DNA of 64,000 nt from assembly GCA_016180525.1 (NCBI GenBank), contig JACPBB010000002.1:122517-186516 (forward strand). Reading direction: 5' to 3'. This DNA comes from Parcubacteria group bacterium. Lineage in GTDB: Bacteria; Patescibacteriota; Minisyncoccia; Phycocordibacterales; UBA2135. The notes beneath the pieces are model-generated. The model saw only the letters and a list, made by a program, of their open reading frames with translations. It was not told where the DNA came from and did not search any database. Position numbers and translations under genes: made by a program. Positions 20,829 through 37,661 of the stretch are shown piece after piece; position 1 is the stretch's first letter, and the number at the start of each line of letters is the position of its first letter.

Positions 20829-20899
20829 GGTTTTATAGTACTTTATAATTTTCTAACTCGCAAACGATACACTCTAACATTCTAAAGGATGTTAGAGTG

Positions 20900-23018: not shown

Positions 23019-23129
23019 AGTAATAATTATACTCTAAAAATCTGTATGAAAATATCTAAAAAGAGCTCCGCGTGAAGCGCGGAGCAAGTTGCCAACAAAA
23101 TGGAGTTTAAAAAATAAAGATAAAGAGCT

Positions 23130-23568
23130 AGAGAGAGTTGGGGGGTTTGGGTTCCAAGGTACCCCCCGAACCTCGTTGCCGTGTCGCTTTAAGCGCCGTG
23201 AGGCACTGTTAGGCGGCAGCGGCTAGCCCGAATCCCTGCTCCGGTGCCATCGCGGCGAAGAAATTGCCGTGACGTACATCAGTAGGGATCCGGACCGTTC
23301 CGTTATCGTTGACATTTTGGTCAGTTAGATCTCTTTTACTCTGCCCGAAGGCAGGGTGTGCTCGCTTTTGTCACGCGCGTCGATCCTATTTCGCCCCCCT
23401 CAGGAATGCATACAGGTGGGACTTGAACCACACTTCAGCCGTTTTGGGCTTACCGGAGCGTGAAGCTCCCGCATTTCCCCTTTCGGGCTGTATGCATTCT
23501 TGGTGGAGGCGCCGGGTACTGCCCCCGGGTCTGCGACGTCTATTCTGCAGGCACGAGCTCAACCAACC
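23130..23568 (-). ncRNA. ssrA: tmRNA (ssrA), circularly permuted two-piece gene arrangement
   Basis: On the minus strand an extended -10 TGATATAAT promoter (plus 23576-23584) is followed by an acceptor piece ending ...CCGGGGGCAGUACCCGG CGCCUCC A CCA (CCA at plus 23501-23503). Next comes an intervening element closed by a perfect 12-bp stem GAAUGCAUACAG/CUGUAUGCAUUC (plus 23402-23500) that contains a T-arm-like GUGGUUCAAGUCCCAC. The coding piece starts GGGGGCGAAAUAGGAUCGACG (plus 23399 downward). 5' GGGGGCG pairs with 3' CGCCUCC, giving a G3:U70 wobble. GGAUCGACG matches the conserved tmRNA GGAUUCGACGGG. An in-frame tag ORF GCA CCG GAG CAG GGA UUC GGG CUA GCC GCU GCC GCC UAA encodes (A)PEQGFGLAAAA (plus 23209-23247). 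The 3' end of the coding piece (GGCAACGAG) pairs with the 5' end of the acceptor piece (CUCGUGCC). Confidence 0.7.
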
Positions 23569-23693
23569 GCTATCTATTATATCAGATTTTATTTAAAATG
23601 CAAGCGTTTAAACCTAAATTTAAGCGGCTTATTGAAGAAAAAGAAAAAGCATAGTAGAATTCCTATATTCAATCTTCTTGTTTCCGTAGTTTT

Positions 23694-23727
23694 GCGGGCC
23701 TGCCCGCCGAAGCCTGCGGAAGCAGGC
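23694..23727 (+). other. two GC-rich hairpins immediately 5' of tRNA-Gly(GCC)
   Basis: GCGGGCctGCCCGC lies at 23694-23707 and GCCTGC-GGAA-GCAGGC at 23712-23727. They are preceded by a GCGGG copy of the tRNA 5' end. Confidence 0.5.
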
Positions 23728-23731
23728 GAAG

Positions 23732-23802
23732 GCGGGTATGGTTCAATGGTAGAACATCTGGTTGCCAATCAGATGATGGGAGTTCGATTCTCCCTACCCG
23801 CA
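23732..23802 (+). tRNA. tRNA-Gly (anticodon GCC)
   Basis: Acceptor GCGGGTA/TACCCGC, anticodon loop TTGCCAA, T-loop TTCGATT. Confidence 0.85.
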
Positions 23803-23803
23803 T

Positions 23804-24100
23804 ATGGAAAAACTTCCTAAAAACCCCACTGGTGCAGAAATACAAGAATTCGTCTCTAAACAAGAAGCAGAGTTAAAAGAAAACCTGAATTCACTTGTTG
23901 AACTTTTTAATTTAAAAGTTTTAAGAGAGGGGCACGATTTTTCTAGCCCAATATTAGTTGTTGAAGCGGCTGATGGGGGTGAGGCAAAAATAGGATTTCC
24001 AGATGGCCTTAAATATCCTCCCTGTGCAACTAAAAAAATAAAAGATGTTCCAATGTCAGTGTATGGCCATGGTCCTTGGGCATACCACATAGATATTTAA
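23804..24100 (+). CDS. small hypothetical protein (98 aa)
   Basis: The ORF starts 2 nt after the tRNA. No motif recognised. Confidence 0.4.
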   Translation: MEKLPKNPTGAEIQEFVSKQEAELKENLNSLVELFNLKVLREGHDFSSPILVVEAADGGEAKIGFPDGLKYPPCATKKIKDVPMSVYGHGPWAYHIDI

Positions 24101-24375
24101 ACAAATTTTTATAGTTTTACTGAAAAATAAGGATAGATTGTCAGAAAACTGTGCATAACTATGTGGATATGTGTATAAAGGACAAAAAATGTCCTTTATA
24201 TTTTATAAGAATAGGCTTGTCGCTGCGTAATCTCAAACTTTCGCAAGGTAAGGGTTGGAAATACAGCTAAGCATTATTCTTATAAAAGTTTCACATGAAA
24301 CATTTACAAAGAATAACTATTATTTTTTAAAAGTTTTGCTTATTATTTGGAATTACTTCACACAATTAATGTTTC

Positions 24376-24801
24376 ATGAATAACGCAAAAAATCATAAAA
24401 AACCTGAACATTTAAAAATAGGAGCTTTAGGAGAAGATATTACCTGCCGCTTTTTAAAACAAAAAGGATTCAAAATAATTGAAAGAAATTATAGAAAGAA
24501 ATGGGGGGAGATAGATGTTGTTGCAGAAAAAGAAAATATTTTACGTTTTGTTGAAGTAAAATCTGTTTCACGAATAACGTCAGATGAAAATGTTATTCAT
24601 GAAACATCTGAAAGGAGATATCGTCCAGAAGACATGGTGCACCCATGGAAAGTAAAAAGGATGCAAAGAGTAATTCAGTCATATCTTTTTGAAAAAAATA
24701 TTTCAGAATATATAAAATGGCAGTTTGATATAGTTGCTGTTGAGATTGATCAAAATAGAAAAACCGCAAAAGTGCGTTTTATTGAAAATATGATATTGTA
24801 A
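24376..24801 (+). CDS. yraN: UPF0102/YraN-family putative endonuclease
   Basis: LGEDITCRFLKQKGFKIIERNYRKKWGEIDVVAEKENILRFVEVKS is typical of the YraN family. Confidence 0.7.
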   Translation: MNNAKNHKKPEHLKIGALGEDITCRFLKQKGFKIIERNYRKKWGEIDVVAEKENILRFVEVKSVSRITSDENVIHETSERRYRPEDMVHPWKVKRMQRVIQSYLFEKNISEYIKWQFDIVAVEIDQNRKTAKVRFIENMIL

Positions 24802-24809
24802 TAAAAAGA

Positions 24810-24852
24810 TTGTTTCATGAATAACACTTTAAAAATGTTATTCATGAAACAA
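24810..24852. repeat. perfect 17-bp inverted repeat (TTGTTTCATGAATAACA-9nt-TGTTATTCATGAAACAA)
   Basis: The left arm repeats the 15-mer TGTTTCATGAATAAC that overlaps the yraN start codon (24370-24384). Confidence 0.6.
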
Positions 24853-24984
24853 TGAGCGGAAATGCTCAATAAATATATTTTAAAAGACAAAACAACGTGT
24901 CTTTTTGCTTGTCTTTTACGGGCTGTAGCCCCGACGCAAAGTCGGGGTCCCGACCTCGGGGCGCGTCGGGATATATAAAATAAG

Positions 24985-25055
24985 CGGGCTGTAGTATATC
25001 GGCAGTACACATGCATGGGGTGCATGTAGGCCGGGTTCGATTCCCGGCAGCCCGA
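24985..25055 (+). tRNA. tRNA-Pro (anticodon GGG)
   Basis: Acceptor CGGGCTG/CAGCCCG, anticodon loop ATGGGGT, T-loop TTCGATT. It is preceded at 24919-24928 by a duplicate of its first 10 nt plus two GC hairpins (24929-24971). Confidence 0.8.
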
Positions 25056-25168
25056 CTGAGTGAAGCGAAGGAGGGATGATTGCAGTTGAGGAGCGGAAGC
25101 GACGAAATACTGAGGTCAATAGACCGAATGTGCCCGAACGGAAATAAAAAAAACATGTGCATTAAAAA

Positions 25169-25239
25169 CGGGCTGTAGTATACCGGTAGTACGCACGCTT
25201 CGGGAGCGTGTAGATCGGGTTCGATTCCCGACAGCCCGA
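25169..25239 (+). tRNA. tRNA-Pro (anticodon CGG)
   Basis: Acceptor CGGGCTG/CAGCCCG, anticodon loop TTCGGGA, T-loop TTCGATT. Confidence 0.85.
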
Positions 25240-25241
25240 TT

Positions 25242-25478
25242 ATGGAAAATGATAAAAATTTGAAAATTGAGGTGAGGGATAAAATGATAACGTATCTGAC
25301 TGCGGCATTTGGACTTGTGGTGGGTTTGGCGTGGAATGATGCGGTAAAAGCGTTTATTGAGTTTGTATTTCCTATTCAAAAAGATTCGCTGTGGGCGAAG
25401 TTTGGATACGCATTTGTTCTCACTGTTGTTTTTGTTTTGATTACCATATATATTGCTCGTTTGTTTAAAAAACAGTAG
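25242..25478 (+). CDS. small membrane protein (78 aa, 2 TM)
   Basis: Hydrophobic segments ITYLTAAFGLVVGLAW and FGYAFVLTVVFVLITIYIA. Confidence 0.5.
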   Translation: MENDKNLKIEVRDKMITYLTAAFGLVVGLAWNDAVKAFIEFVFPIQKDSLWAKFGYAFVLTVVFVLITIYIARLFKKQ

Positions 25479-25493
25479 TATTGAAAGACAGAA

Positions 25494-26012
25494 ATGATAT
25501 TAACGAAAAGCAAAATTTTAGAAGAGATTAAAAAAGGCTCAGTGAAAATTGAGCCATTTTCTGAAGAACAAGTGACTGCTGCCTCTATAGATTTGCATTT
25601 AGGCAATGTGTTTAAGGTACTGGTTAAAGCAGGCCACTCTATTATTGTAGATAATGAACTTACTGACGCAGAACAATATGCAAAACCAATTCATCTCAAA
25701 GAAGAAGAGACAATAACGATACAGCCTAATGAAACGATTCTCGGCGTTACAAAAGAAAAGGTAACGTTTCCGTCTGACATCGCGGGGAGAATAGAAGGAA
25801 GGTCGCGGTTCGCGCGCATCGGGCTTGGGGTGCACATTACTTCCGGCTTTATTCATCCGGGCGCGGACAACATACAAGTGCTTGAAATTTCAAACATGTC
25901 GCCGAATGAACTGGTGTTAAAACCAGGGCTTAAAATTTGCCAGATTGTGCTTGAGCGCTGCGAAGGGGGAGAGACATACGCGGGAAAATTTCAAGGACAG
26001 ACCGAACCGTAA
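25494..26012 (+). CDS. dcd: dCTP deaminase (dUTPase-fold)
   Basis: MILTKSKILEEIKKGSVKIEPFSEEQVTAASIDLHLG...GRIEGRSRFARIGLGVHITSGFIHPGA is characteristic of the Dcd family. Confidence 0.85.
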   Translation: MILTKSKILEEIKKGSVKIEPFSEEQVTAASIDLHLGNVFKVLVKAGHSIIVDNELTDAEQYAKPIHLKEEETITIQPNETILGVTKEKVTFPSDIAGRIEGRSRFARIGLGVHITSGFIHPGADNIQVLEISNMSPNELVLKPGLKICQIVLERCEGGETYAGKFQGQTEP

Positions 26013-26050
26013 GCTAGCTATTAGGAGTTAGTTTAATTTCAATATAATCA

Positions 26051-26124
26051 TGGGCGGCTAGCTCAGCTGGTTAGAGCGCTGTCCTCACACGACAGAGGTC
26101 ACAAGTTCGAATCTTGTGCCGCCC
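26051..26124 (+). tRNA. tRNA-Val (anticodon CAC)
   Basis: Acceptor GGGCGGC/GCCGCCC, anticodon loop CTCACAC, T-loop TTCGAAT. Confidence 0.85.
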
Positions 26125-26129
26125 ATTTA

Positions 26130-26200
26130 GGGGCCTATAGTAAAGTGGTATTACGCGGCATTCGCATTGCCGAGTCCGGGGTTCGACTCCCCGTAGGTCC
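26130..26200 (+). tRNA. tRNA-Ala (anticodon CGC)
   Basis: The acceptor GGGCCTA/TAGGTCC has a G3:U70 pair. Anticodon loop TTCGCAT, T-loop TTCGACT. It is followed by CCC. Confidence 0.8.
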
Positions 26201-26210
26201 ACCCAAAAAA

Positions 26211-26236
26211 ACATCCCGACAGCTGTCGGGATGTTT
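26211..26236. terminator. bidirectional terminator (A7-CATCCCGACAGCTGTCGGGATG-T6)
   Basis: A perfect palindrome flanked by an A-run and a T-run, lying between the tRNA operon and the convergent regulator gene. Confidence 0.7.
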
Positions 26237-26267
26237 TTTGTTTCGCAATAGTTTTTCTGAATAAATT

Positions 26268-27050
26268 TTATTTATAATCTTTACCTAATCCGCTATTCCA
26301 AATCATTTCAAAAATTTGCTCCATAGATTTAGCAACGCGTTTATTGTCAATAATAATTGCTTGTAAATCCTTGCTAGAAATAATTCGTACAAATTCTCCT
26401 GGAATGATTTCTGTTGAAGTATCCGGGGACCATAAATCTATATTAATTAATTTTGTATGTCCTTTATATATTTCTTCTTGCGGTTTAATAAAAATATCGC
26501 TTTCTTTTGTATCTGGCGCGATAACACGATGTCGCACGTCGCTTTTACGAGCTTTTTTATTCCACTCAAGATAAATATTAATAATTTTCTGGTCTGGGTC
26601 GGGCAGGTGCGAATACAACGCAAGAATAGTTTTACCATTCATGCTCTCAAATTTATAGTGCAGAGCATTAACTATGCCATCATAACCGTCAAATGTTATG
26701 ACTGTTGACTCATCTTTCTGAACTGCAAGTTGCGCGATAGTAGGCAACATTTCCTCAAAGGAAAGTATTTTGTTTTTTTGCTCCTCTACATACTCCTCCG
26801 GAGTTTTCGCGAAAAAAATCTGGCTCTTTGAGTGAGGAATCTTGAGCACCAGTCCTTTTTGTCTTAATTCTTCCAACACAAGGTAGGTTGTCGGAGTTTT
26901 TACGCCCGCAAGTTTGGAAATTTTGTACGCGGTTCCGCGTCCAGTTTGCAAAAGTGCAACATACACTTTTGCCTCTTTTTCTGATAATCCTATGTCGCTT
27001 AATTTTCTTGTTAAGTTTTCCATAATGTATATAGTACCAAAAATATACAA
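26268..27050 (-). CDS. TrmB-like winged-helix transcriptional regulator (paralog 3)
   Basis: The N-terminal HTH IGLSEKEAKVYVALLQTGRGTAYKISKLAGVKTPTTYLVLEELRQKGLV. Confidence 0.7.
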   Translation of the reverse strand: MYIFGTIYIMENLTRKLSDIGLSEKEAKVYVALLQTGRGTAYKISKLAGVKTPTTYLVLEELRQKGLVLKIPHSKSQIFFAKTPEEYVEEQKNKILSFEEMLPTIAQLAVQKDESTVITFDGYDGIVNALHYKFESMNGKTILALYSHLPDPDQKIINIYLEWNKKARKSDVRHRVIAPDTKESDIFIKPQEEIYKGHTKLINIDLWSPDTSTEIIPGEFVRIISSKDLQAIIIDNKRVAKSMEQIFEMIWNSGLGKDYK

Positions 27051-27234
27051 ATGTTCAATAATTCTGATGAATATTTACTAATTAAAAAATAGCCTTGTTT
27101 ATCAATATAAAAATAGAATATACGTGTTAAAATATTCATATTAATTGATTAATTTTAAAAACTATGGTATAGTTTTATTAGAAGATCGTTGAAGCGTCCA
27201 TGTCGTAGCAACACCTTAGAAATGGAGATTAATT

Positions 27235-27501
27235 ATGATTAACGGAATGAAAAAGTTATTCGGACTTTTGTGGCTCCGCGTCCCACCCGCAGATCGTTCA
27301 ATGCTTCCGCTTACTGCAATATTCTTTTACTTCGTGTGGCTCGCCCTCTCTCCCTTGACGATAATGGTGTTCGCTGCTATCGGGTGGATGCCGCTTGTTC
27401 TAAGCGTTGGCATTCTTGGATTCATGTTTCTGTTGGGAATTCCCTTTTCGGTAGTGGCGACCGGCATTTGCTGGTATCGCATGTGCAAAAATTACTACTG
27501 A
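27235..27501 (+). CDS. small membrane protein (88 aa, 2-3 TM)
   Basis: Hydrophobic ORF with a downstream terminator hairpin at about 27520-27555. Confidence 0.5.
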   Translation: MINGMKKLFGLLWLRVPPADRSMLPLTAIFFYFVWLALSPLTIMVFAAIGWMPLVLSVGILGFMFLLGIPFSVVATGICWYRMCKNYY

Positions 27502-27725
27502 AAAGAGTCTATTAAATTGAGCCTTTGTCTGCTGAGACAGGGGCTTTTTTTCTTAATTTACAAAATTTTTTTAAAGCATTCTGGACATTCCAAAGAGTTG
27601 ATATATTTGAAATTGCCGAAGATATAATATACAGAGATACAAGAGATGATATAGACGTATAATTTTTCTTAGACAAGTGATGGTTTTTTGTTAGTATCAA
27701 ACTAGACTGTGCTTAAGGGTGCTAC

Positions 27726-28688
27726 ATGAGCTCAATATTTTACCCTGTCGTCCCGCTTTCGTGTCCGTGGGGTGCCTCGGGGTCGTGTAGATTTTGCGGC
27801 ATTCCGTTTATGGAAAAAGTGCTTGTGCCGGAGATGCCGGCTGAAAAAGAACTTAAAGCCCAATTTGATGTATTTGTAAATAACTCTAGAAACGCACAAG
27901 ACATTAAAAGACACAAACGAATCGCAATTGCGCCCAACGGAAGCGTCGTCCCTGAAGTTCCCAAACCACTTCGGGATTATGTGCTCGCATTTTGCAAAAA
28001 GCACAACCTTTGCTTTGAAAGCGAACTCATAGCAACGCTCATTGACGAGAAGCGTGCGTACGCGCTCTATGACAGGGCATACAAGAAGCGACACCGCGGA
28101 CTCTCTGGTTCGGAAAGGCACGGAAAAGTTGTCGCAACTCTTCAAGAAATTGACGACGCGCTCAACAGTGAATTTCTCGGAAATAACGTGCTTTTAAATA
28201 TCGGCGTAGAGGTCGCCAATTCAGAAGATTTGAAAATGCTTCATAAATATACCGATGACCCCGATGATTTCATTGCGTGCGCGGAGTATCTGCGCGCGCG
28301 AGGCATCAGGATTGGCGCGAATATTCTCGTGGGGGCGCCGTTTATACAAGACCCTGTGCGCAAAGCGCTTGAAACAGTGCGTTTTGCGTTTGAAGAGGTG
28401 CGAGCTGACAAAATACTCCTTATTACATGGAACCCGGTGAAGTACACTGTCGCGAAAAAGCAGTATGACAAGGGAAATATTGACGTGCTCTCGGCAACGG
28501 AATCCGCTGAAATATATCATGTCGTGAAGGCGGCATATCCGCATAAAGAAATTGAATGCAACAGAATGCGCGCGCACGTGTTTCATGGAAAACATCCGAA
28601 TTTTAGAGGCGCCAGGATTAGCACCGACGAGCGGAAGATAAGGGCACGAGAAGCGGTAAGGGCGTTAGCAAGAGAGGTTTTTGTATAA
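27726..28688 (+). CDS. hypothetical protein with noncanonical Cys triad (CX8CX2C); possible radical-SAM-like/TIM-barrel enzyme
   Basis: The N-terminal CPWGASGSCRFCG is followed by alternating beta/alpha-like segments. It is not the canonical CX3CX2C. It is followed by the terminator at 28688-28722. Confidence 0.5.
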   Translation: MSSIFYPVVPLSCPWGASGSCRFCGIPFMEKVLVPEMPAEKELKAQFDVFVNNSRNAQDIKRHKRIAIAPNGSVVPEVPKPLRDYVLAFCKKHNLCFESELIATLIDEKRAYALYDRAYKKRHRGLSGSERHGKVVATLQEIDDALNSEFLGNNVLLNIGVEVANSEDLKMLHKYTDDPDDFIACAEYLRARGIRIGANILVGAPFIQDPVRKALETVRFAFEEVRADKILLITWNPVKYTVAKKQYDKGNIDVLSATESAEIYHVVKAAYPHKEIECNRMRAHVFHGKHPNFRGARISTDERKIRAREAVRALAREVFV

Positions 28689-28769
28689 AGCCCCGACTAC
28701 AAGTCGGGGCTTTACTTTTTATGTTTATAAGAGTAATCTGTGGGGCAGACATAACGAAGAAAAAGGAAT

Positions 28770-29954
28770 TTGATAATGCCGAAACAGTCACCGTACCCCT
28801 TTGGAGGAATAAATCCGCCGCACCATGGAAGCGTTGCATTCGTTTATAAATCTGTTGAAGATGGCAGAGGAGCGTTTAGTAAATATGGAAGCAGATACGC
28901 ATACGGGCGAATGGGAAATCCAAGCGTTCAGCCGCTTGAAGAATGGCTTGCGGAGTTTCATGGTCTTCCCGCAGGCTCTGTGTGGGCAACTAATACCGGG
29001 ATGACTGCTCTTGACCTCGTAATTCGGGGGAGCACATTAAAGGATGTCGGGTGGGGCAAAAAAATTGTTGCTTCCCCGTATCTATACGGCGGAACATTTC
29101 ACCTTTTGGAGCTTCTTGACCGAAATGGATATATCAACCTCGTATGGGTTGAAAATCCATTTGATTTGAGTTCGTGGGAAATTGCCTTAAACGGAAAGAC
29201 CGCGGCGATTGCTATTCTTGAGACACCGGCAAATCCGACAATTGACATTTTTGACATACGGGCAATTGCGACCACGGTACATACCTGGGGATCTCGTCTT
29301 GTGGTTGACGACACGCTCGCTGTTGGCCTTCAAAAGCCATTTGAACTCGGAGCAGATTGCTGTGTCTACTCTGTCACAAAGGGTTTGAATAGAAAATCTT
29401 CGCATCTTGGCGGCGCGGTTGTTGCGAACCCATCGTTTAGAAGCAAGGTAGAGGCGGTTTTTGATGATTTATTTGTGCACTCGGGAATGATTATAGATCC
29501 TGGCTCTGCAATCGCTGTATATCAAAATAGGGCAACCCTCGTGCGGGATATGGAGCTTTTTTCAGAACACGCGCTCATTGTTGCCTTGTTTCTGCAGAAG
29601 CATAAAAAAATCAAGAAGGTCAACTACCCGTTTCTTAAGAACAGCAAACATTACCATTTGGCGCATCAGCAAATGACCGGCGGCGGTGGCGTGCTTTCAT
29701 TTGAGATGCACAGCTTTGATGACGCCGTTAAGTTTGTTGAGCTGCAAAGCGAGGCGTACCTCGGAGTTCATTTAGGTGATGGGAACAACCATCTGGTGAC
29801 TCATCCAGCATCCACCACGCACAGCAAACTCTCTGAAGAAGAATTGAATAAACTGAATATTACGCCGGGACTTATCAGGCTCTCGGTTGGCCTTGATGAA
29901 AAGAAAATGAGTCCGCTTCTTGCTAATTTTAAAAACGTTTTGGATCAGTTGTAA
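28770..29954 (+). CDS. PLP-dependent Cys/Met-metabolism enzyme (cystathionine gamma-synthase/O-acetylhomoserine sulfhydrylase/methionine gamma-lyase family)
   Basis: The family-typical N-terminal region is present, and the PLP-lysine context is YSVTKGLNRKSSHLGGAVV. Confidence 0.75.
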   Translation: MIMPKQSPYPFGGINPPHHGSVAFVYKSVEDGRGAFSKYGSRYAYGRMGNPSVQPLEEWLAEFHGLPAGSVWATNTGMTALDLVIRGSTLKDVGWGKKIVASPYLYGGTFHLLELLDRNGYINLVWVENPFDLSSWEIALNGKTAAIAILETPANPTIDIFDIRAIATTVHTWGSRLVVDDTLAVGLQKPFELGADCCVYSVTKGLNRKSSHLGGAVVANPSFRSKVEAVFDDLFVHSGMIIDPGSAIAVYQNRATLVRDMELFSEHALIVALFLQKHKKIKKVNYPFLKNSKHYHLAHQQMTGGGGVLSFEMHSFDDAVKFVELQSEAYLGVHLGDGNNHLVTHPASTTHSKLSEEELNKLNITPGLIRLSVGLDEKKMSPLLANFKNVLDQL

Positions 29955-29971
29955 AAAACAAAATTATAACT

Positions 29972-29998
29972 CCGGAAAATATCCGGGGTTTTTATTTT
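29972..29998 (+). terminator. intrinsic terminator (CCGG-aaaatat-CCGG GGTTTTTATTTT)
   Basis: A short stem followed by a T-run after the stop at 29954. Confidence 0.45.
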
Positions 29999-30028
29999 GA
30001 TTGTTTTTGTGTATATTCAATAGTGACT

Positions 30029-30052
30029 ACGGGGCGTAGTATACCCCAGTAC
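30029..30052 (+). pseudogene. orphan 5' fragment of a tRNA-Pro-like gene (acceptor + D-arm)
   Basis: CGGGGCG-TA-GTATACCCCAGTAC-C. The matching 3' half lies at 30216-30253. Confidence 0.5.
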
Positions 30053-30121
30053 CATCCCGCCTGTGGCGGGAGCTACGGGGCAGGCCGGTAGCCGCCTGCT
30101 TCTTGTCCCGTTAGAAAATCA

Positions 30122-30192
30122 ACGGAGTGTAGTATACCGGTAGTACACCTGCTTTGGGAGCAGGCAGACTGGGTTCGATTCCCAGCACTCCG
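30122..30192 (+). tRNA. tRNA-Pro (anticodon UGG)
   Basis: Acceptor CGGAGTG/CACTCCG, anticodon loop TTTGGGA, T-loop TTCGATT. It lies between the two halves of another tRNA-Pro-like sequence. Confidence 0.85.
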
Positions 30193-30215
30193 ACAATCAA
30201 ATTTTCTAATGGGAT

Positions 30216-30253
30216 AGGGAGCAGGTAGACTGGGTTCGATTCCCAGCGCCCCG
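30216..30253 (+). pseudogene. orphan 3' fragment of a tRNA-Pro-like gene (anticodon-loop 3' part, T-arm, acceptor 3' strand)
   Basis: GGGA-GCAGG-TAGAC-TGGGTTCGATTCCCA-GCGCCCCG-A. The acceptor strand is complementary to the 5' fragment at 30029-30035. Confidence 0.5.
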
Positions 30254-30340
30254 ACAATTAAATTTTCTATTTGTAAATTTGCACAATTTCAAGATGTGCG
30301 GTAGTTTGTTTTTAGATTATTTTTTAAGGCAACTCACAAC

Positions 30341-30880
30341 ATGGCGAGGAAAAAATTTTCTGTTCAGCCACCTGTTCCCAAAAAGTTTAAACCGCCTGTT
30401 GTTGAAAAGAAAAGTGACGGAGTGCCGGCATTTCATGCGTATGACTGGTATTTTAATTGGATGAAAGGATTTATGAAAAATGTGGACGGTGTATTTCTTG
30501 TACCCTGCGCGGCGACAAAACCGATTTACACCTCAACATTTCATCGTCGTATTTATCAGCCGTTTGGAGCGACTCGTGGCAAAGGCAGAGAAATTTTGGT
30601 TGTTTCAGAACCGGTTGTGCTCATCCGCTATCAGGATTTGTATGACTTTGAAAAAATGTTTTTGTACGAGTTTCATCCCAAGATGCTCTCGGAGAGTAGA
30701 GAATTGTTTGTGAATCGTTTGCGGGAACTGCTTTCAGGAAAACATATTGTCGGATGTTTACCAAGCCACCATGCAAAACTCATTGATGATGCAGTGGGTG
30801 GAGGTTGGAAAAATTATTGGGATGGCAACATGTATTCTATGGTGGAAAAAGGTACAAAACTTGCTCGAAAAAGGACATAA
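30341..30880 (+). CDS. hypothetical protein (179 aa)
   Basis: An ORF with a basic N-terminus. No motif recognised. Confidence 0.5.
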   Translation: MARKKFSVQPPVPKKFKPPVVEKKSDGVPAFHAYDWYFNWMKGFMKNVDGVFLVPCAATKPIYTSTFHRRIYQPFGATRGKGREILVVSEPVVLIRYQDLYDFEKMFLYEFHPKMLSESRELFVNRLRELLSGKHIVGCLPSHHAKLIDDAVGGGWKNYWDGNMYSMVEKGTKLARKRT

Positions 30881-30917
30881 AATTTAAAAACACCGCGACA
30901 TGTTTACATGCCGCGGT

Positions 30918-31193
30918 TTAGTTTAGGCTTCGTTTGTGCTGCTTCACAAAATTTGGTAATTCTCTTGCAACCCAAGCGTTCATGGTCTCAAACAGCAGGA
31001 GACCTTCCGCGTTAAGGACATTCTGTTCGGGAAGTACCGGGCGTCCTGCGTTATTGCGCATGATATTTTCGCTCAGAATTTCGTGTAGCCGCTCAAATTC
31101 CGTCACTTTATTTTCATCTTGTTCCTGAAGATTGCCGAGAGCGACGACAGAGTGGCAGTACTGAATAGCGTCTTGAGCTGTAATAGTGAACAT
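30918..31193 (-). CDS. small hypothetical protein (91 aa)
   Basis: AAGGAGGTG lies 6 nt upstream of ATG at 31193, so that start is preferred over the track start at 31202. Confidence 0.45.
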   Translation of the reverse strand: MFTITAQDAIQYCHSVVALGNLQEQDENKVTEFERLHEILSENIMRNNAGRPVLPEQNVLNAEGLLLFETMNAWVARELPNFVKQHKRSLN

Positions 31194-31285
31194 AAGAACC
31201 ACCTCCTTTTCAGATGTAATTGTATCATATTTAATAAAAAAGTCAAATATTTTTTGTGCTCCAAAAAATACTATAATTACAAATA

Positions 31286-32083
31286 ATGAAAATTATCTCG
31301 TGGAACGTAAATGGAATTAGGGCAGTGCACCGCAAGGGCCTGTTTCTGCCGTTTATAAAAAAAGAGCAGCCGGACATATTGTGTCTTCAGGAAACAAAAG
31401 CAGAAAAGCATCAGTCGGAAATTGATTTGCCGGAGTATGAAGAATACTGGAATTCTGCGGAAAAAAAAGGATACAGCGGCACGGCAATTTTTACAAAAAC
31501 AAAACCGCTCTCCGTTGCGCTTGGCATTCCGGAGCCCATTTCAAAAAAATGGAAGCTTGGGGGAGACGGGTATGGGAATCCAAACACAGAGGGGCGTGTC
31601 ATAACTGCCGAATTTAAAAATTTCTTTTTAATAAGCGTCTATACACCCAATGCAAAAGATGATTTGAGCCGCCTTTCGCTTCGTCACAAACATTGGGACC
31701 CTGCATTTTTGGAGTTTTGCAAAATTCTGGACCAGAAAAAGCCTGTTATTTTTTGCGGAGACTTGAATGTGGCGCATATGCCGATTGACTTGGCGCATCC
31801 AAAAGAAAACGAGGGCAAAAAGGGCTTTACAAAAGAAGAGCGAGAGGGAATTAATAATATTATTGTGGCTGATTTTGTAGATACGTTTCGGTGCTTTAAT
31901 GACAAGCCGAATCAATACACATGGTGGAGTCATTTTGCGAACTCGCGGGCGCGGAATGTCGGCTGGAGGATAGATTATGTTTTTGCGAGCAAACGTTTAC
32001 TTTCAAAAATCACTTCGGCATTTATCAGACCAAAAATTTTTGGCTCTGACCATTGTCCGGTTGGGATTGTTCTTGATATTTAA
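31286..32083 (+). CDS. xth: exodeoxyribonuclease III (Xth/APE1 family AP endonuclease)
   Basis: MKIISWNVNGIRAVHRK...ILCLQETK...GDLNVAH...WWSHF...GSDHCPV. Confidence 0.9.
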   Translation: MKIISWNVNGIRAVHRKGLFLPFIKKEQPDILCLQETKAEKHQSEIDLPEYEEYWNSAEKKGYSGTAIFTKTKPLSVALGIPEPISKKWKLGGDGYGNPNTEGRVITAEFKNFFLISVYTPNAKDDLSRLSLRHKHWDPAFLEFCKILDQKKPVIFCGDLNVAHMPIDLAHPKENEGKKGFTKEEREGINNIIVADFVDTFRCFNDKPNQYTWWSHFANSRARNVGWRIDYVFASKRLLSKITSAFIRPKIFGSDHCPVGIVLDI

Positions 32084-32085
32084 AG

Positions 32086-32928
32086 ATGCTTTCCGCGAAA
32101 AAGGTTTTACAATTTCAAAAAATAATTTATGCGCATTATAAAAAACACGGGCGGAAACTCCCGTGGCGTCCTCCTGCGCTAAAGCTTCGGAAGGATAAAA
32201 TTTTAAATCCTTATAAAATTCTTGTTTCTGAAGTGATGCTTCAACAGACACAAGTTTCTCGCGTGATTAAAAAATATCCATTGTTTATAAAAGAGTTTAA
32301 GACGGGGCGCGCGCTTGCGCGCGCGCCGCTCTCTAAAGTTCTTTCAGTCTGGAGCGGGCTTGGATATAACCGCCGGGCAAAGTTCTTACATCACGCTGCA
32401 AAAAAAATTATTGAAAAACATGCTGGAGTCCTGCCAAGGGATGCTGAAACTCTTATGACATTGCCTGGGGTGGGGCCGGGAACTGCAGGGGCGGTAATGG
32501 CCTTTGCCTTTAATACGCCAAGTATTTTCATTGAAACAAATATACGTAGCGTATTTATTCATTATTTTTTTCCTAAAAGAAAAAAGGTGTCAGATAAAGA
32601 AATTTTACAGCTAATAAAGAAAACAATTGATAACAGAAACGTGCGCGACTGGTATTACGCGCTTATGGACTATGGGGTAATGCTTAAAGAAAAGCATAAA
32701 AATCCAAGTCGTAAAAGTGCTCATTATGTGGAACAATCTCCGTTTAAAAATTCCAACCGGCAAGTCCGCGGAGAAATTCTCAAACTTTTGACACAGCACA
32801 AATCAATTCCGAAACAAAAAATAAAAAAATATATAAAAGGTAATCAAAAATATATTAACAGCGCGCTTGAACAGCTTTTAAAAGAAAAATTTATACGGAT
32901 AAAAAATAATGTAGTTACACTTGCATAG
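32086..32928 (+). CDS. HhH-GPD base-excision DNA glycosylase (MutY/Nth family)
   Basis: LVSEVMLQQTQVSRVIKKYPLF...LSVWSGLGYNRRAKFLHHAAKKI...LPGVGPGTAGAVMAFAF. No clear 4Cys Fe-S loop is seen. Confidence 0.7.
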   Translation: MLSAKKVLQFQKIIYAHYKKHGRKLPWRPPALKLRKDKILNPYKILVSEVMLQQTQVSRVIKKYPLFIKEFKTGRALARAPLSKVLSVWSGLGYNRRAKFLHHAAKKIIEKHAGVLPRDAETLMTLPGVGPGTAGAVMAFAFNTPSIFIETNIRSVFIHYFFPKRKKVSDKEILQLIKKTIDNRNVRDWYYALMDYGVMLKEKHKNPSRKSAHYVEQSPFKNSNRQVRGEILKLLTQHKSIPKQKIKKYIKGNQKYINSALEQLLKEKFIRIKNNVVTLA

Positions 32929-33036
32929 CATGTTGCATTTCTAAAGCTATTCCTAGATTGTGTTGATTGATTTGACGCGCGAAATACAAAGGAGTAGTAT
33001 AAAAACGGTTACTTACTTTTCCGTCTGCCTTTAACA

Positions 33037-33246
33037 ATGGAGGAGCCCATGAAAAAGGCAACAATCTTGTCTGCGCTCGGAGCCGCGTCACTTCTTCTCG
33101 TCACTGGGTGTGCTGCTGTTTCTAAAGACGATGGACTTACTCCACAGATGAAAATGCAACAGTGTCCACATCACGAACAGATGCACGGCCCAAAAGGACA
33201 CAGTCATGACGAGCATCACAAGGGCGATGGACACAGCCACAAATAG
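33037..33246 (+). CDS. small His-rich lipoprotein (69 aa)
   Basis: The lipobox LLLVTGC is followed by a C-terminal HHEQMHGPKGHSHDEHHKGDGHSHK. Confidence 0.55.
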   Translation: MEEPMKKATILSALGAASLLLVTGCAAVSKDDGLTPQMKMQQCPHHEQMHGPKGHSHDEHHKGDGHSHK

Positions 33247-33301
33247 TACATGCGTTAACGCGACCAGAACTTGAGAGCTTGTAACAAGACACAAGCTCTT
33301 T

Positions 33302-34489
33302 TTATTTCTTCTCAAGCACTTCGGTGAGTATTGCTGTTAATTGTGGAGCGATGGCGTTGTTAAACTCGGCGCTTTTTTGTTTGAGGTCTCCGTATAAAAA
33401 TGTCTGTAAATCTTTTCCTGTATATTTTTTGATGCTGTCATCTATATGAAAAAGAGATATCGCACGCAGATCTCGCTCGTCAGTTGAACCTTCAAGAAGA
33501 CTCGTCGCGATGAGTCCTATGAGCTCGCCCGTCTTTAAGCTAAATACGCCGCCGCCCGAGGCGCCTTCTTGGGCAAGCACTGTGCCGCCGAGGGAGAATC
33601 CGTCAAGCGTTTGATTTCTAAATGTGTAGAGCTTTTTTAAACTTGTCACGCTTGAGGTAATCCATAAATTTTTTGTCACATTCAATCCCCCTAAAAATCC
33701 CGCCGGATAAGCCGCGAGAAGTACCGGATCGTTAACGTCTATTTCATTTTGCCCTACGTACACCGACATTGCCGGAAATGATTCGGGGAGCGCTCTCATT
33801 GTGTTTGTGGATTCTGTTATTAAGAGGAGCGCGAAATCGTTCTCACCAGTTCCAGTTGGCTTTTGCAGTTTGATGGCGGGTGCGTTTTCTTCTATCCATA
33901 TCGGAGGAAGGTACAGAAGCTCCGCCTTGTATAGAGGTATGGCAGGGCTTCCGGTCCGAACGACACAATTTAAAAAGTCTGGGATTTTATAATCTTTGAG
34001 TAGCAGATATTGCGCTACGTGCGCGTTTGTAAGAATGACCCCTTGGGGGTCAATAACAACTCCGCTTCCGGTAATGGGCTCAAAAACTCCGGATGTTTTG
34101 GTCAGACAGAATATGTTCACTACTGCCGCCCTTGCGGCTTCGTTTAACTCCGCCTGTGGAATGAGCGGTGGTGGTGCTGGCAGAATGGTCGTTGGCGATG
34201 GCGTTATGGCTGTTTCTGCTTTTACTGTGACTTGTGTTTGAGGCAATGTTTCTAACGGAATAATAGCGGGGGGTGCTTGCTTTGGTTCGGCCGTTTCACC
34301 TTCAACTTCCGGACCTTCTTTTTCTAAAACTTCAATGGATTTCGGAGGATTAGTTTCCGTTAAAAAAGTGGGGCGTGTGCTCGTTGCTACTTCCCCAACA
34401 GATATTCCCAGAAAAGAAAGGACAAAAACGCCGCCAAGCATGATTTTTTGTAAAAATAAAAGCGCTGTGTCTAAAAATGAATTGAGCAT
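33302..34489 (-). CDS. trypsin-like serine protease, membrane-anchored
   Basis: An N-terminal TM segment precedes the chymotrypsin-fold motifs TNAHV...DFALL...EGASGGGVF (a GDSGG analog). Confidence 0.7.
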   Translation of the reverse strand: MLNSFLDTALLFLQKIMLGGVFVLSFLGISVGEVATSTRPTFLTETNPPKSIEVLEKEGPEVEGETAEPKQAPPAIIPLETLPQTQVTVKAETAITPSPTTILPAPPPLIPQAELNEAARAAVVNIFCLTKTSGVFEPITGSGVVIDPQGVILTNAHVAQYLLLKDYKIPDFLNCVVRTGSPAIPLYKAELLYLPPIWIEENAPAIKLQKPTGTGENDFALLLITESTNTMRALPESFPAMSVYVGQNEIDVNDPVLLAAYPAGFLGGLNVTKNLWITSSVTSLKKLYTFRNQTLDGFSLGGTVLAQEGASGGGVFSLKTGELIGLIATSLLEGSTDERDLRAISLFHIDDSIKKYTGKDLQTFLYGDLKQKSAEFNNAIAPQLTAILTEVLEKK

Positions 34490-34903
34490 AATTGTATATC
34501 ACAGTGTATCACACAATATCATTATATTTTGGAAAAACATTATACCACAGATTTTTTTATGCAGAATAATTTTATGTGTTGACAGGGAGGAGATGTCCTA
34601 TATACTTATTTAGATATAATGCGTGAATCTGATTTTGCATTATATTTTTATCAGTAAAGTACGGTCTGGATTTAGAGATTTTTAAATTTCTAAATTTAAA
34701 TCGGAGATTACCATGATATTTGACGATGAAACCACAAGTGGAGAAGGAGCAGAAGAAAATAATGAAGAAGGAGGTGAAGGAGAAGGTGCAGCGGCAACTG
34801 AATAGTTTTCTTTCAGTTCTCTTAATCCAACACAAAATCCCCACGCCGCATGGCGCTCGGGGATTTTGTGTTTTCGGGGTTTATGGTAGGATACGGGTGA
34901 AAA

Positions 34904-34948
34904 GCGGGATTAGTTTCGGGATAAAATATACAATTTTCCAACATAATT
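34904..34948 (+). pseudogene. degenerate duplicate of the 5' 40 nt of tRNA-Gly(UCC)
   Basis: GCGGGATTAGTTTcgggataaaatatacAATTTTCCAAcat compared with the tRNA GCGGGATTAGTTTaatggcaaaataacAGTTTTCCAAact. Confidence 0.5.
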
Positions 34949-35019
34949 GCGGGATTAGTTTAATGGCAAAATAACAGTTTTCCAAACTGTGGTTGGGAGT
35001 TCGATTCTCCCATCCCGCA
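34949..35019 (+). tRNA. tRNA-Gly (anticodon UCC)
   Basis: Acceptor GCGGGAT/ATCCCGC, anticodon loop TTTCCAA, T-loop TTCGATT. It is followed by a terminator hairpin at 35028-35055. A duplicate of its last 16 nt lies at 35203-35218. Confidence 0.85.
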
Positions 35020-35467
35020 TCAAACAAAATTAACCAGCCCTGTGCTGGTTAATTTTGTATTGATTGCGGAGATGAGCAAGCAAACTGCTTTGCTTGCGTG
35101 GAGAATTGAAAAGCGGAGCCATGTCGCGAAGCGGCCGGCGAGCTCGGGGAGGAAGTTCTTAACGATCCCGCCGCGGCGGGGGAGTTTAGAAACTTGACCC
35201 CAATTCTCCCATCCCGCACATAATGAGACTTTTTGCGCTTCGGCGCATCAATCTCCGTTTCTATTTCAGAAATCTCTGAGGTTCTAACATCGTCCTATTC
35301 CCTGTACAGGGAACGGGAAATTTTTTGATTGCTGAAATTGATTTTTTCTGAAAAAGAAACGGATTTTTGATAATTTGTTGGAGGTTCTAGCTAAACCTTG
35401 CTTTTTAAAAAGCATATGGTATTATTTGCCATAGTTCAATAGTTCACAAAAGAGGAGGCGTTCGCTC

Positions 35468-35788
35468 ATGTCTATGATTGAACTCGTTGTTCGACAACAG
35501 GACAGCCATCTCGGGTTTTCTACTGCTCATAAGGGTATTTTTGATGAGGAAAAGATTTATGAAGGGGCAGTAGGCCCGATTCCACTTCTTCGTAAAAGTT
35601 TAATGGAATTCTGTGATAGACTTGAGGAAAATCGCAATAATCGAATTGATATGCTGCAGCAAATTGTTAGTAACCATCTCTTGACTCAGAAAATACGCAC
35701 AGAGGCGCAAGAGGAACTTGAGAGACAGACTGTGGCTCGCGACGACGACCTAAAATTGGCACATAAAATGCGCGTTTCAAAAGACTAA
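35468..35788 (+). CDS. hypothetical protein (106 aa)
   Basis: ORF only. Confidence 0.4.
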   Translation: MSMIELVVRQQDSHLGFSTAHKGIFDEEKIYEGAVGPIPLLRKSLMEFCDRLEENRNNRIDMLQQIVSNHLLTQKIRTEAQEELERQTVARDDDLKLAHKMRVSKD

Positions 35789-36037
35789 CAATACAGCTAA
35801 TTGTCTAACCAAGAGCACCTAACTACGGTGCTCTTTAATTATATCCTTAACATACATTTTTTTATTTATTATTAACAATTTTCAGTTTTATTTCTACCAG
35901 CTTTATAGCGCTTCTAAGGCGCTCCGATAAGGTGTATTTACCGATAAAACAGCTGCCGTATCCAGCTGTTTTATTTTTACAATGCGGAGTAGAGTATCCA
36001 AATTACTTTTTATTTTGTTGAAATAAGAAGGCAATCG

Positions 36038-37126
36038 GTGTACACTGGGGAAATTATGTCAGACAGCGAATCGCAAAATAAAAACAGTGCTTTTAAGATA
36101 AAAAAACTGCCGAATTCGGAAGTTGAGATTGAGGGGGAGGTCCCCACGGAGGAGCTTGAGTCATATTACAAAAAAACGATTCATAATTTGGGGCGGGAAA
36201 TTGAAATTCCCGGATTTCGTAAGGGCCACATTCCGGAGAAGGTGCTTGTAGAGAAAGTGGGCGAAAATGTGATTTTACAGGAGATGGCACAAGCCGCGCT
36301 CTCTGTTGTCTACCCAAAAATTATTCTTGAAAACAATATTGAACCGATTGGGAAACCTGAAATCACTATTACAAAACTTGCGCGAGGAAATCCGCTTGGG
36401 TTTAAAGCAAAAACGGCGGTTTTGCCGTCGTTTGAATTGCCTGATTATAAAGCAATTGCCAAAAGAGTGGGAGAGAATGCGACTGAAAAAGTTTTTGTTG
36501 AAGATAAAGAAGTGGAAGATGTTGTTTTAAATATTCAAAAACAGTGGGAGACAATGCCGAACAAGGAAGGCGAAACAAAAGCCCCGTGGGAGCTAACGGA
36601 CGAATTTGTGAAAAAATTGGGAAAGTTTGAGACAGTTCTCGACTTTAAATCAAAAATAAAAGAAAATTTGGTTCAAGAAAAAACTCACAAAGCAAAAGAA
36701 AAAAAGAGAATCGCTATCATAGACGCTATTTTAAACAAAATAGACATTGTGCTCCCCAATGTTCTTGTTCAAAGCGAGATGGACAGAATGCTTTCGCGTT
36801 TTAAGGGAAATGTCTCGGCGATGGGACAAAAATTTGAGGATTATCTCACGAAAATTAAAAAAACGGAGAAAGAATTGCGTGAAGGGTGGCAGAAAGACGC
36901 GGAGAAGGGCGTGAAGGTGCAACTGTTGCTTCAAAAAATTGCCGAGGCGGAAAAAATAAAGGCGCCCGAGGAAGAAGTGCAAAAAGAAATGGAGCATCTC
37001 ATGAAACATCATCCCAAAGGGGACAAAGACCGCATGCGACAATATATTGAAGGGGTGCTTCTGCACGAAAAAGTATTTCAATTTTTAGAAAACAGCGACC
37101 CGAATACTCCGAACGCATCTGAATAA
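36038..37126 (+). CDS. tig: trigger factor (PPIase domain apparently absent)
   Basis: The N-terminal ribosome-binding signature GFRKGHIP is present, and the C-terminal chaperone domain shows similarity. The ORF is about 362 aa. Confidence 0.75.
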   Translation: MYTGEIMSDSESQNKNSAFKIKKLPNSEVEIEGEVPTEELESYYKKTIHNLGREIEIPGFRKGHIPEKVLVEKVGENVILQEMAQAALSVVYPKIILENNIEPIGKPEITITKLARGNPLGFKAKTAVLPSFELPDYKAIAKRVGENATEKVFVEDKEVEDVVLNIQKQWETMPNKEGETKAPWELTDEFVKKLGKFETVLDFKSKIKENLVQEKTHKAKEKKRIAIIDAILNKIDIVLPNVLVQSEMDRMLSRFKGNVSAMGQKFEDYLTKIKKTEKELREGWQKDAEKGVKVQLLLQKIAEAEKIKAPEEEVQKEMEHLMKHHPKGDKDRMRQYIEGVLLHEKVFQFLENSDPNTPNASE

Positions 37127-37661
37127 TCCGAAAAACAAAACTATAGATCCCGCATGTTCATTGTTTTATTTTTAATTGCAGAAAATTGTTTTATACTATA
37201 AAGAGAAATGTTTTTTGGAGACAAAGGTGAAAAACTTTTTGAATTTTTGGAGGAGCAGGAAGGCGATTGTTGCTGAACAGCTTGGATTAAAAGATTGTGG
37301 AAAGGTTGAGCGGCCGAGCTACTGCGATTTACAAAAAGACATTTCACCCCGAGGTCATCAGTTTTGTAACACTCCACTGCGCATCGGTATTGAAAAAGCG
37401 ACCGGGGCAAGGGTTAAATACTGCTGGCGATGTCAGGAAATCATAGAGCGTCTCGCTCACCCGCGCACACCGCATGCTTCAAAAATCGGGAAGGACGGAG
37501 AAGGGAATGTTGTACCTTTGCCAAAAAATAAAAGCAAATAAAAATGGGCATCTGGAATGCCCATTTTAAAATAGTTTGACAAAATGATTAAAATAATATT
37601 TTATTGAATCTTGAAGGGCTGGCAGTGGGTCAGCCTCAAACTCCAGTGAGGAGGATTACCA

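Follow-up and report, generated by a model that had tools for sequence, protein, structure and literature searches.

Why should a complete tRNA gene lie between the two halves of another gene of the same isotype? The question is raised by positions 30030-30254 of a 64,000-nt stretch of Parcubacteria DNA (hereafter the window), in which an intact tRNA-Pro(UGG) gene is enclosed by pieces of a second tRNA-Pro gene. Our answer, to which we assign a probability of about 0.55, is that this is a nested ('matryoshka') tRNA locus, in which a functional tRNA-Pro(UGG) sits at the position of the anticodon loop of the second tRNA-Pro. Fragments of tRNA genes are usually dismissed as the debris of mobile elements; here they would form a second cloverleaf around a working tRNA, and this shell is as strongly conserved as the tRNA itself between organisms that share about half of their protein residues.

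A tRNA gene between the halves of another

Both ARAGORN and the Rfam model RF00005 call only one tRNA in the flagged stretch, the inner tRNA-Pro(UGG) at 30123-30193 (or 30194; 61.9 bits), which lies on the plus strand like the other features of the locus and has the acceptor stem CGGAGTG/CACTCCG, the discriminator A and no encoded CCA. Upstream of it is the outer 5' piece 1 (30030-30054, CGGGGCG-TA-GTAT-ACCCCA-GTAC-CA), recognized from its sequence and from a repeat, which comprises the acceptor strand CGGGGCG, positions 8-9 and a D-arm (GTAT/ACCCCA/GTAC) whose D-loop GG (G18 G19) is gone and replaced by CC. A GC-rich hairpin predicted by folding (30055-30071, TCCCGCC-TGT-GGCGGGA) is the filler between this D-arm and a second, degenerate 5' copy, the outer 5' piece 2 (30073-30101, CTA-CGGGGCA-GGC-CGGTA-GCC-G-CCTGC-TT). 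Piece 2 is made up of a leader CTA, CGGGGCA, a shortened D-arm (GGC/CGGTA/GCC), a G, the anticodon-stem strand CCTGC and TT; its CTACGGGGC repeats 30027-30035 with the 3-nt leader CTA included, and its CCGGTAG..CCTGCTT matches the inner gene. Between piece 2 and the intact gene are 18 nt and then CAA. On the other side the inner tRNA is followed by CAATCAA, by ATTTTCTAATGGGATA and by the outer 3' piece (30217-30254, GGGA-GCAGG-TAGA-CTGGG-TTCGATT-CCCAG-CGCCCCG-A), likewise identified from sequence and repeat, which ends with a T-arm (CTGGG-TTCGATT-CCCAG), the acceptor strand CGCCCCG and the discriminator A. The trailer beyond it (CAATTAAATTTTCTA, 30255-30269) is a direct repeat of the inner gene's trailer at 30194-30208.

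The outer acceptor strands pair at 7 of 7 positions in the minimum free energy (MFE) fold, 30247-30253 with piece 1, and the strands of the inner stem (CGGAGTG/CACTCCG) match each other, as do those of the outer stem (CGGGGCG/CGCCCCG); neither is a hybrid of a host and an element. A repeat search returned a direct repeat of 53 nt (92%) between 30156-30208 and 30217-30269, running from the anticodon loop to 15 nt beyond the discriminator with only 8 nt between the two copies, and a second one of 17 nt (88%) between 30029-30045 and 30122-30138. The sequence intervening in the outer gene thus measures about 121 nt, 71 of which are tRNA. Everything that the original prediction listed is present, its coordinates being one base lower than ours: an intact tRNA-Pro(UGG) at 30122-30192, a 5' fragment at 30029-30052, a 3' fragment at 30216-30253 with a complementary acceptor strand, some 55 nt shared by the 3' fragment and the intact gene, and a further decayed half-copy, which is piece 2. 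Its description of one tRNA gene interrupted by a stretch that carries another is anatomically correct. Positions 26208-30246 are matched at 100% by Logan contigs from five other sequencing runs (L005-L009), one of which (L009) covers the 5' pieces, the inner gene and the beginning of the 3' piece; since five independent assemblies reproduce the arrangement, it is not an assembly artefact.

Two features had escaped the original prediction: the loss of the D-loop GG from piece 1, and a 25-nt inverted repeat with 84% complementarity, formed by arm 1 (CCTGCTTCTTGTCCCGTTAGAAAAT, 30095-30119), which contains the 5' strand of the outer anticodon stem and an extension, and arm 2 (ATTTTCTAATGGGATAGGGAGCAGG, 30201-30225), which contains the extension and the 3' strand of that stem. 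All four mismatches are G.U on the plus (tRNA) strand and none is A.C; read as RNA, the arms form an uninterrupted 25-bp helix of 21 Watson-Crick and 4 G.U pairs. It begins with the outer anticodon stem CCTGC/GCAGG, continues without a loop and stops 3 nt short of the inner tRNA on the 5' side and 7 nt from it on the 3' side. The duplex energy is -39.3 kcal/mol for the tRNA-sense strand and -24.6 kcal/mol for the opposite strand, a difference of 14.7 kcal/mol in favour of the former. The MFE fold of the 256-nt region is a cloverleaf within a cloverleaf (-117 kcal/mol, z = -7.2), and the leader/trailer duplex is the strongest among the 766 tRNAs of all fetched loci (-50 versus a mean of -16.5, standard deviation 6.9).

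Nested and plain relatives

A search of metagenomes for pairs of T-arms spaced by 35-65 nt turned up a nested locus (L023) on a contig of a different organism, whose CCA-adding enzyme is 51% identical to the one encoded in the window (18202-19671). Its elements follow in the order complete outer 5' half (CGGTCTG...CACGG), arm CTTGCCCCGTTAGAGAT, tRNA-Pro(CGG), arm ATCTCTAACGGGGTGAAGGT and outer 3' half (...CAGACCG-A), and its inner acceptor stem, CGGAGTG/CACTCCG, is that of the window. A syntenic series was obtained via the neighbouring methyltransferase gene, with L237 reached via the N-terminal read-through of protein P0061. In this series L232 and L237-L239 (three assemblies) are nested and carry two further hairpin insertions in the outer gene, one in the D-loop and one between positions 41 and 42; L233 and L235 have one plain inner-type tRNA-Pro(CGG), L229 has one plain outer-type tRNA-Pro(CGG), and L240 has one plain outer-type gene together with a 5' remnant that holds the D-loop insertion. 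Arm 1 is homologous to CTTGCCCCGTTAGAGAT in L023, L232 and L237; the arms of the window and of L023 are 67-89% alike, and the inner tRNA itself 80-83%. In the relatives, too, the helix stands at the anticodon-loop position, with 18-22 bp compared with 25 bp in the window and with bulges of 1-3 nt on the 3' strand only. Across the helices of the four nests there are 12 G.U pairs and at most one A.C. On the methyltransferase tree the nested loci fall into three subclades and are interleaved with plain ones. Relatives with simple tRNA genes, which had been named as the observation that would count against a disrupted gene, do exist at syntenic sites, but the nesting is retained in others, which makes it more than an isolated accident. 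Homologues of the downstream 179-aa gene (L010-L021, 58-83% identity) have no tRNA upstream and yielded no comparison, and a protein database search with the reverse-strand translation of the L023 nest gave no further nest candidates.

The D-loop insertion is a 39-nt hairpin of the outer tRNA-Pro (L232:1764-1802, L237:1918-1956, L023:2947-2985, L240:1357-1395) that is 78-90% conserved across four lineages and contains one compensatory pair; L023 and L240 keep it only in their upstream 5' remnant. The 32-nt hairpin between positions 41 and 42 (L232:1937-1968, L237:2087-2118) has kept its length and not its sequence. A hammerhead reading of the D-loop insertion was rejected, as CUGACGAG...CGAAAC occurs only in L237, L232 having CAGA and L023 CCGA. 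The tRNA-Pro locus of L229 (3228-4667) lies three genes upstream of the prolyl-tRNA synthetase gene, in a neighbourhood rich in tRNA functions that includes a CCA-adding enzyme, a tRNA-binding-domain protein, QueA and TruB.

Sequence comparison of the three related nested loci shows arms identical at 97 of 111 positions (87%), against 48-52% identity at the fourfold sites of the adjacent gene; the inner trailer is 50-60% identical, the third insertion 52% and the D-loop insertion 78-90%. The shells of all four nests were aligned by hand, with N as gap filler and with lineage-specific insertions and the variable junction left out, because MAFFT failed to register the arms of the window, which have one extra base pair (an A-U pair, inserted in both arms). 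In this alignment 117 of 117 pairing cells are paired, and both sides have changed in 7 of the 30 pairs, three of them in the outer acceptor stem, two in the anticodon stem and two in the distal helix. The covariation score was reached by none of 500 shuffles, and slid controls pair at 40-48%. The comparison offers good evidence for a constraint on the locus at the RNA level.

Closer to the window, three contigs of a sister strain (L001, L003 and L004) contain the same downstream 3.6 kb at 99.9% identity, preceded by an intact tRNA-Pro(UGG) whose acceptor stem is of the outer type (CGGGGCG/CGCCCCG), indicating that the outer type exists as a normal gene. Identity between the window and L001, the only one of the three that extends far enough upstream, starts inside the tRNA at TAGACTGGG, from which point the outer 3' piece is identical; the upstream flank of L001 is entirely different. 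That flank (L001:1-279) is a partial 71-aa open reading frame (ORF) on the minus strand, found nowhere in the 64-kb window. The two forms occur in the same samples. The flanks appear to have been swapped very recently through recombination within the tRNA, and the difference can be read as a rearrangement or a strain difference with its breakpoint exactly in the tRNA.

Possible function and maintenance of the outer shell

Can the outer gene decode? Allowed introns of 0-300 nt, ARAGORN does not call it as long as the inner gene is in place. When the inner gene is masked (and lineage-specific insertions are taken out where needed), the program rebuilds Lys-CUU in the window and Leu-AAG, Leu-AAG and Pro-AGG at the other loci. 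No bulge-helix-bulge (BHB) motif is found, the helix being continuous in the window and bulged on the 3' strand only in the relatives; no group I intron or other Rfam family matches window positions 18000-38000 at E <= 1, and no group I intron or ribozyme family matches L023, L232, L237 or the phage locus L041 described below at E <= 0.1. No candidate for a splicing endonuclease or an RNA ligase was noticed by eye among the ORFs of the window, which covers 64 kb of a contig of about 412 kb. The suggestion of a split or intron-containing tRNA, one of the alternatives in the original prediction, finds no support, given the missing intron-mode call, the unrelated rebuilt anticodons and the lack of BHB and group I features. 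A 7-nt loop with a proline anticodon, moreover, cannot be reconstructed from the outer loop of the window. In the window the outer gene lacks an anticodon loop and, in piece 1, the D-loop GG, and its D-arm is set apart from its anticodon stem by 40 nt of filler; we conclude that, as far as its sequence tells, it is a non-decoding, tRNA-shaped shell, at least in this genome.

We propose that transcription probably starts at a promoter ahead of the outer 5' piece 1 and yields the entire unit as a single precursor. The upstream gene, for a pyridoxal phosphate enzyme, has a terminator at 29968-29990. TATATT, a -10-like box seen by eye at 30012-30017 on the plus strand, 12 nt upstream of piece 1, would be the only plausible promoter for the whole composite, and the AT-rich hexamers in arm 1 are too near the inner tRNA to start a transcript upstream of it; a single precursor is inferred from these observations. 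In this precursor the flanks of the inner tRNA would pair as the 25-bp helix that extends the outer anticodon stem, and the outer acceptor strands would pair as well, giving a cloverleaf inside a cloverleaf. Since the gene encodes no CCA, the established route of tRNA maturation would apply: RNase P would cut at +1 and RNase Z after the discriminator to release the inner tRNA, to which the CCA-adding enzyme encoded in the window would add CCA. The zipped outer halves would be kept from mispairing with the near-identical inner halves, and the inner tRNA would be presented for processing. Each genome has two compensated differences between its inner and its outer acceptor stem, in keeping with such a role of the shell. 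The helix may in addition be a site for RNase III.

The direct repeats shared by the inner and outer genes would recombine readily. Unequal recombination would produce the stacked 5' pieces of the window, L023 and L240, and deletion between repeats would produce plain genes, including a chimera of outer acceptor and inner core like that of L229; recombination-prone repeats would account for the stacking, for the plain syntenic genes of relatives and for the intact outer type of the sister strain alike. Selection on the RNA probably maintains the shell helix and the acceptor pairing, with insulation as the most likely reason. As to its origin, the nest could be an old selected architecture or a spreading tRNA cassette; arms and an inner acceptor stem that deep lineages share in different neighbourhoods fit either.

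Several points weigh against this proposal. We infer the single precursor, its processing and the insulation by the helix, and a consensus scan found no full sigma-70 match on the plus strand. The covariation rests on four nested loci from two deep lineages and on a hand-made alignment. Gene conversion rather than selection may keep parts of the shell intact, because the inner and outer genes of one genome share variants of the D-loop and T-loop. The conservation of the arm sequence between organisms at 51% protein identity could reflect recognition by a protein or recent horizontal spread. Finally, relatives have plain inner-type genes without arms, so the maturation of the inner tRNA as such needs none.

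Three other explanations have to be weighed against a non-decoding shell held by selection. The outer RNA may itself be functional, either as a spliced tRNA-Pro joined by an unknown bacterial pathway or as an anticodon-less, tRNA-like molecule, two-piece or religated. The perfect acceptor stem with its three doubly changed pairs, the intact T-arm and the helix conserved in four loci would all follow from such a function, as would the extra hairpins that L232 and L237 carry at the same two sites, the one in the D-loop being well conserved and containing a compensatory pair. In the three related loci, CTTG/TATG and GGT could by hand be made to yield a UGG anticodon loop; cleavage by RNase P and RNase Z would leave an adjacent 3'-OH and 5'-phosphate at the helix tip, which a nick-sealing RNA ligase could use as substrate, and the same genome makes a two-piece permuted tmRNA. 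Against this stand not only the absent BHB and ribozyme matches, the discordant anticodons and the loop of the window that cannot be rebuilt, but also the A33 that L232 would carry, the loss of G18 G19 from piece 1, the lack of a ligase or splicing endonuclease seen within the 64-kb window and the fact that syntenic relatives do well with a single plain gene, which together make a functional outer RNA unlikely in our judgement. If it is functional, the outer RNA could be a tRNA-like molecule with a long arm, either religated or in two pieces; RNase P, RNase Z, a synthetase or the CCA-adding enzyme might recognize it, or it might serve as a decoy or regulator. A spliced outer tRNA would be the first protein-dependent or processing-coupled tRNA intron in Bacteria.

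The other two explanations invoke mobile DNA. The inner tRNA and the arms may be a small cassette that enters the anticodon loops of tRNA-Pro genes, with the arms as terminal inverted repeats or as a recombinase site and with the tRNA of the cassette compensating for the gene it destroys. Similar arms (67-89%) and an identical inner acceptor stem in an organism at 51% protein identity and in unrelated neighbourhoods agree with this, as do the interleaved nested and plain states on the tree of the neighbouring gene, a near-identical empty hairpin in a phage contig (L027) and the circular form predicted from the sequence, in which arm 2 followed by arm 1 would place 13-bp inverted repeats on either side of a spacer of about 10 nt, as in the core site of a tyrosine recombinase. 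Yet none of the loci has a transposase or integrase, and the sole recombinase noticed in the window, a tyrosine recombinase of the XerC/XerD type assigned by eye (14469-15494, plus strand), is 15 kb away. Nor are there further copies of the arms in the 64 kb, where a scan for the arm pattern (up to 3 mismatches) gave 9 matches against 5.1 expected, none convincing outside the locus; no target-site duplication is visible at the arm ends. Of the hallmarks of a miniature inverted-repeat transposable element, terminal inverted repeats are present in the form of the 25-nt arms (84% Watson-Crick, all mismatches G.U on one strand), and multiple copies, target-site duplication and a transposase were not seen. 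That every arm mismatch in the window is a G.U on the tRNA strand points to pairing in RNA rather than to protein-bound DNA ends, and the inner gene resembles the host's outer gene, and not a cassette consensus, in its anticodon, D-loop, anticodon stem and T-loop. The arms of the phage analogues are unrelated, and most of the CCCGTTAGA hairpins on phage contigs are ordinary terminators. On balance we regard a cassette as distinctly unlikely. The locus may, alternatively, be a neutral scar of integration and excision at tRNA-Pro, as the original prediction also considered, or of deletions in a tandem tRNA-Pro array, with only the inner gene under selection. A 53-nt repeat that starts in the anticodon loop and extends past the 3' end is what integration at a tRNA gene classically leaves behind; decayed 5' copies are stacked in the window, L023 and L240, partial 5' copies precede other tRNAs of the window too, the flank of the sister strain differs from a break exactly in the tRNA, and an archaeal precedent ties tRNA fragments to a mobile element (PMC3293823). 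A scar nevertheless leaves unexplained a 25-bp helix with G.U mismatches only, arms at 87% identity against some 50% at neutral sites, and the compensatory changes. Only 8 nt separate the repeats, no element or integrase accompanies them, the flanks are core genome, a crossover would have given hybrid acceptor stems where both are self-matched, and the same architecture recurs in four lineages and in phages; a neutral scar is therefore the explanation we find hardest to credit, and we consider it improbable.

Genome context, phage analogues and known systems

The 179-aa protein encoded downstream of the locus is HYT93_02605 of a metagenome-assembled genome labelled 'Parcubacteria group bacterium'. 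Judged by eye, without a scan of hidden Markov models, the ORFs of the window read as core genes (PNPase, the CCA-adding enzyme, trigger factor, ClpP, RNase Y, NusA, pilus genes, ThyA and ArgRS), and the same inspection of the 64-kb ORFs showed no integrase, transposase, prophage or foreign DNA near the locus. A permuted, two-piece tmRNA gene lies beside a tRNA gene cluster at 23136-23607 on the minus strand and scores 89.9 bits with the alphaproteobacterial model and 75.9 bits with Rfam tmRNA_permuted. At 34904-34941, 7 nt upstream of an intact tRNA-Gly(UCC) (34949-35019), is a 38-nt copy of the tRNA 5' half, comprising the acceptor strand, the D-arm region and the anticodon loop TTTTCCAA at about 80-90% identity, for which no matching 3' fragment was seen. 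Upstream of tRNA-Pro(GGG) (24985-25055), positions 24918-24971 hold an 11-nt copy of the tRNA 5' end, ACGGGCTGTAG, followed by the hairpins CCCCGAC..GTCGGGG and TCCCGAC..GTCGGGA and by a TATATA box; GCGGGC and GC hairpins also lie ahead of the tRNA-Gly(GCC) at 23732. These GC-rich CCCGAC hairpins were considered as a common mobile element and rejected, since the same stems serve as terminators elsewhere in the window.

Phage loci that had been fetched from viral contigs for another purpose contain similar arrangements. A generic search for nests among them gave 8 matches where about 7 were expected by chance, and only three (L041, L082 and L101) stand in a real D-arm or T-arm context. In L041 (6613-6777; IMGVR_UViG_3300049048_000052, 252 kb) a tRNA-Arg(CCT) lies inside an unrelated tRNA-shaped shell with a 7-bp acceptor stem GCCTGGT/ACCAGGC, its own D-arm and T-arm and a 16-bp helix at the anticodon loop; this tRNA is the only one in 9.6 kb, and a gene for an HNH endonuclease lies 1.8 kb downstream. 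The nests of L101 and L082, located in phage tRNA arrays, are similar and more degraded. As the phage arms are unrelated to those of Parcubacteria, it is the design and not the sequence that recurs.

Possible nests in phage tRNA arrays were noted at L101:7268-7415, L082:~710-893 and L132:8213-8560. One has a tRNA-Gly(TCC) between GCGGGGT... and ...ACCCCGC-TCCA with 8-bp arms AAAGCACA/TGTGCTTT, another a tRNA-Arg(CCT) inside GGCCCGGTAGCTCAGGGG.../...TCGGGCC, and a third, perhaps a chance arrangement, a tRNA-Ile(TAT) that precedes two T-arm-plus-acceptor fragments whose matching 7-mers lie upstream. A single viral contig (IMGVR_UViG_3300038429_000794; L027:3959-3994 and L165:2554-2589) contains the hairpin CTTGCCCCGTTAGAAAT-TGG-ATTTCTAACGGGGTGAA, identical to the arms of the Parcubacteria nests, the 4 nt on either side included, and with no tRNA in its loop, as well as a second, related hairpin. 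Scans of the viral collection gave no match with the tRNA 3' end and five with the arm sequence, four of them by chance. Hairpins of the form CCCGTTAGA...TCTAACGGG matched 78 times in this collection and were set aside, nearly all being ordinary bidirectional terminators; with these arms at a tRNA-sized spacing there were three matches, all by chance.

A bolder generalization, which we put forward tentatively and think rather unlikely, is that Parcubacteria and, independently, some large phages maintain 'tRNA-in-tRNA' genes with a functional, anticodon-less outer RNA that arises as a by-product of the release of the inner tRNA, or that the outer gene is a true tRNA spliced by an undescribed bacterial pathway. 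Should the nested reading that we favour hold, bacteria with very small genomes would maintain some 150-250 nt of structured RNA that wraps a tRNA and does not decode; disrupted tRNA genes, regarded as typical of Archaea, would have a counterpart in bacteria and phages, and tRNA finders would systematically overlook the outer genes. Full-text searches of the published literature returned no report of a tRNA nested in a tRNA; as judged by its sequence, the locus is a new variant of disrupted tRNA gene.

How does it compare with known systems? Integrases reportedly prefer particular sublocations in tRNA genes, namely the anticodon loop or the T-loop, a finding attributed to Williams in 2002. Fragments of tRNA genes left by integration events are common in prokaryote genomes (PMC9897764). 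With such attachment-site scars the locus shares a direct repeat from the anticodon loop to past the 3' end, half-genes beside an intact gene and a strain breakpoint inside the tRNA. It differs from them in that there is no adjacent element or integrase, the fragments surround an intact gene rather than mark the ends of an island, the intact copy is not a hybrid, the stems being self-matched, and an RNA helix is conserved.

In Archaea, disrupted tRNA genes include those with BHB introns at many positions, the split tRNAs of Nanoarchaeum, and tri-split and permuted genes. As in these, the halves are joined by a helix that extends the anticodon stem, and there can be several insertions per gene, as in L232 and L237. 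A further parallel is a 5' fragment upstream of a replacement gene; an archaeal model of this kind, for a tRNA-Thr fragment of Caldiarchaeum, is set out in PMC3293823. Unlike the archaeal genes, the present one is found in a bacterium, has neither BHB motif nor consistent splice junction, and holds in its intervening sequence a complete tRNA of the same isotype, and no splicing endonuclease was noticed in the 64-kb window.

Patescibacteria have group I introns in the anticodon loop of tRNA genes, at positions 35/36 (PMC13011429). The phylum, the anticodon-loop site and an outer gene missed by standard tRNA finders are common to both. Those introns affect Asn or Asp genes and this locus a Pro gene, and its intervening sequence has no P1-P10 features, no covariance-model match to a group I family in Rfam and, at about 121 nt (71 of them tRNA), falls short of the at least 200 nt that mark a group I intron.

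The nearest parallels in design come from stable RNAs placed inside others: a box C/D RNA lies in the archaeal tRNA-Trp intron, bacterial rRNA intervening sequences are removed by RNase III without religation, and two-piece tmRNA is made from permuted genes. In these systems as in the nest, a stable RNA occupies the loop of another above a long helix, and a base-paired two-piece RNA is a possible outcome; a permuted tmRNA is encoded in the window as well. Here, in contrast, the guest is a complete tRNA and the host has lost its functional loop. The helical extension of about 20 bp or more that marks intervening sequences in the loops of stable RNAs is present in the nested loci, with 25 bp in the window and 18-22 bp in its relatives.

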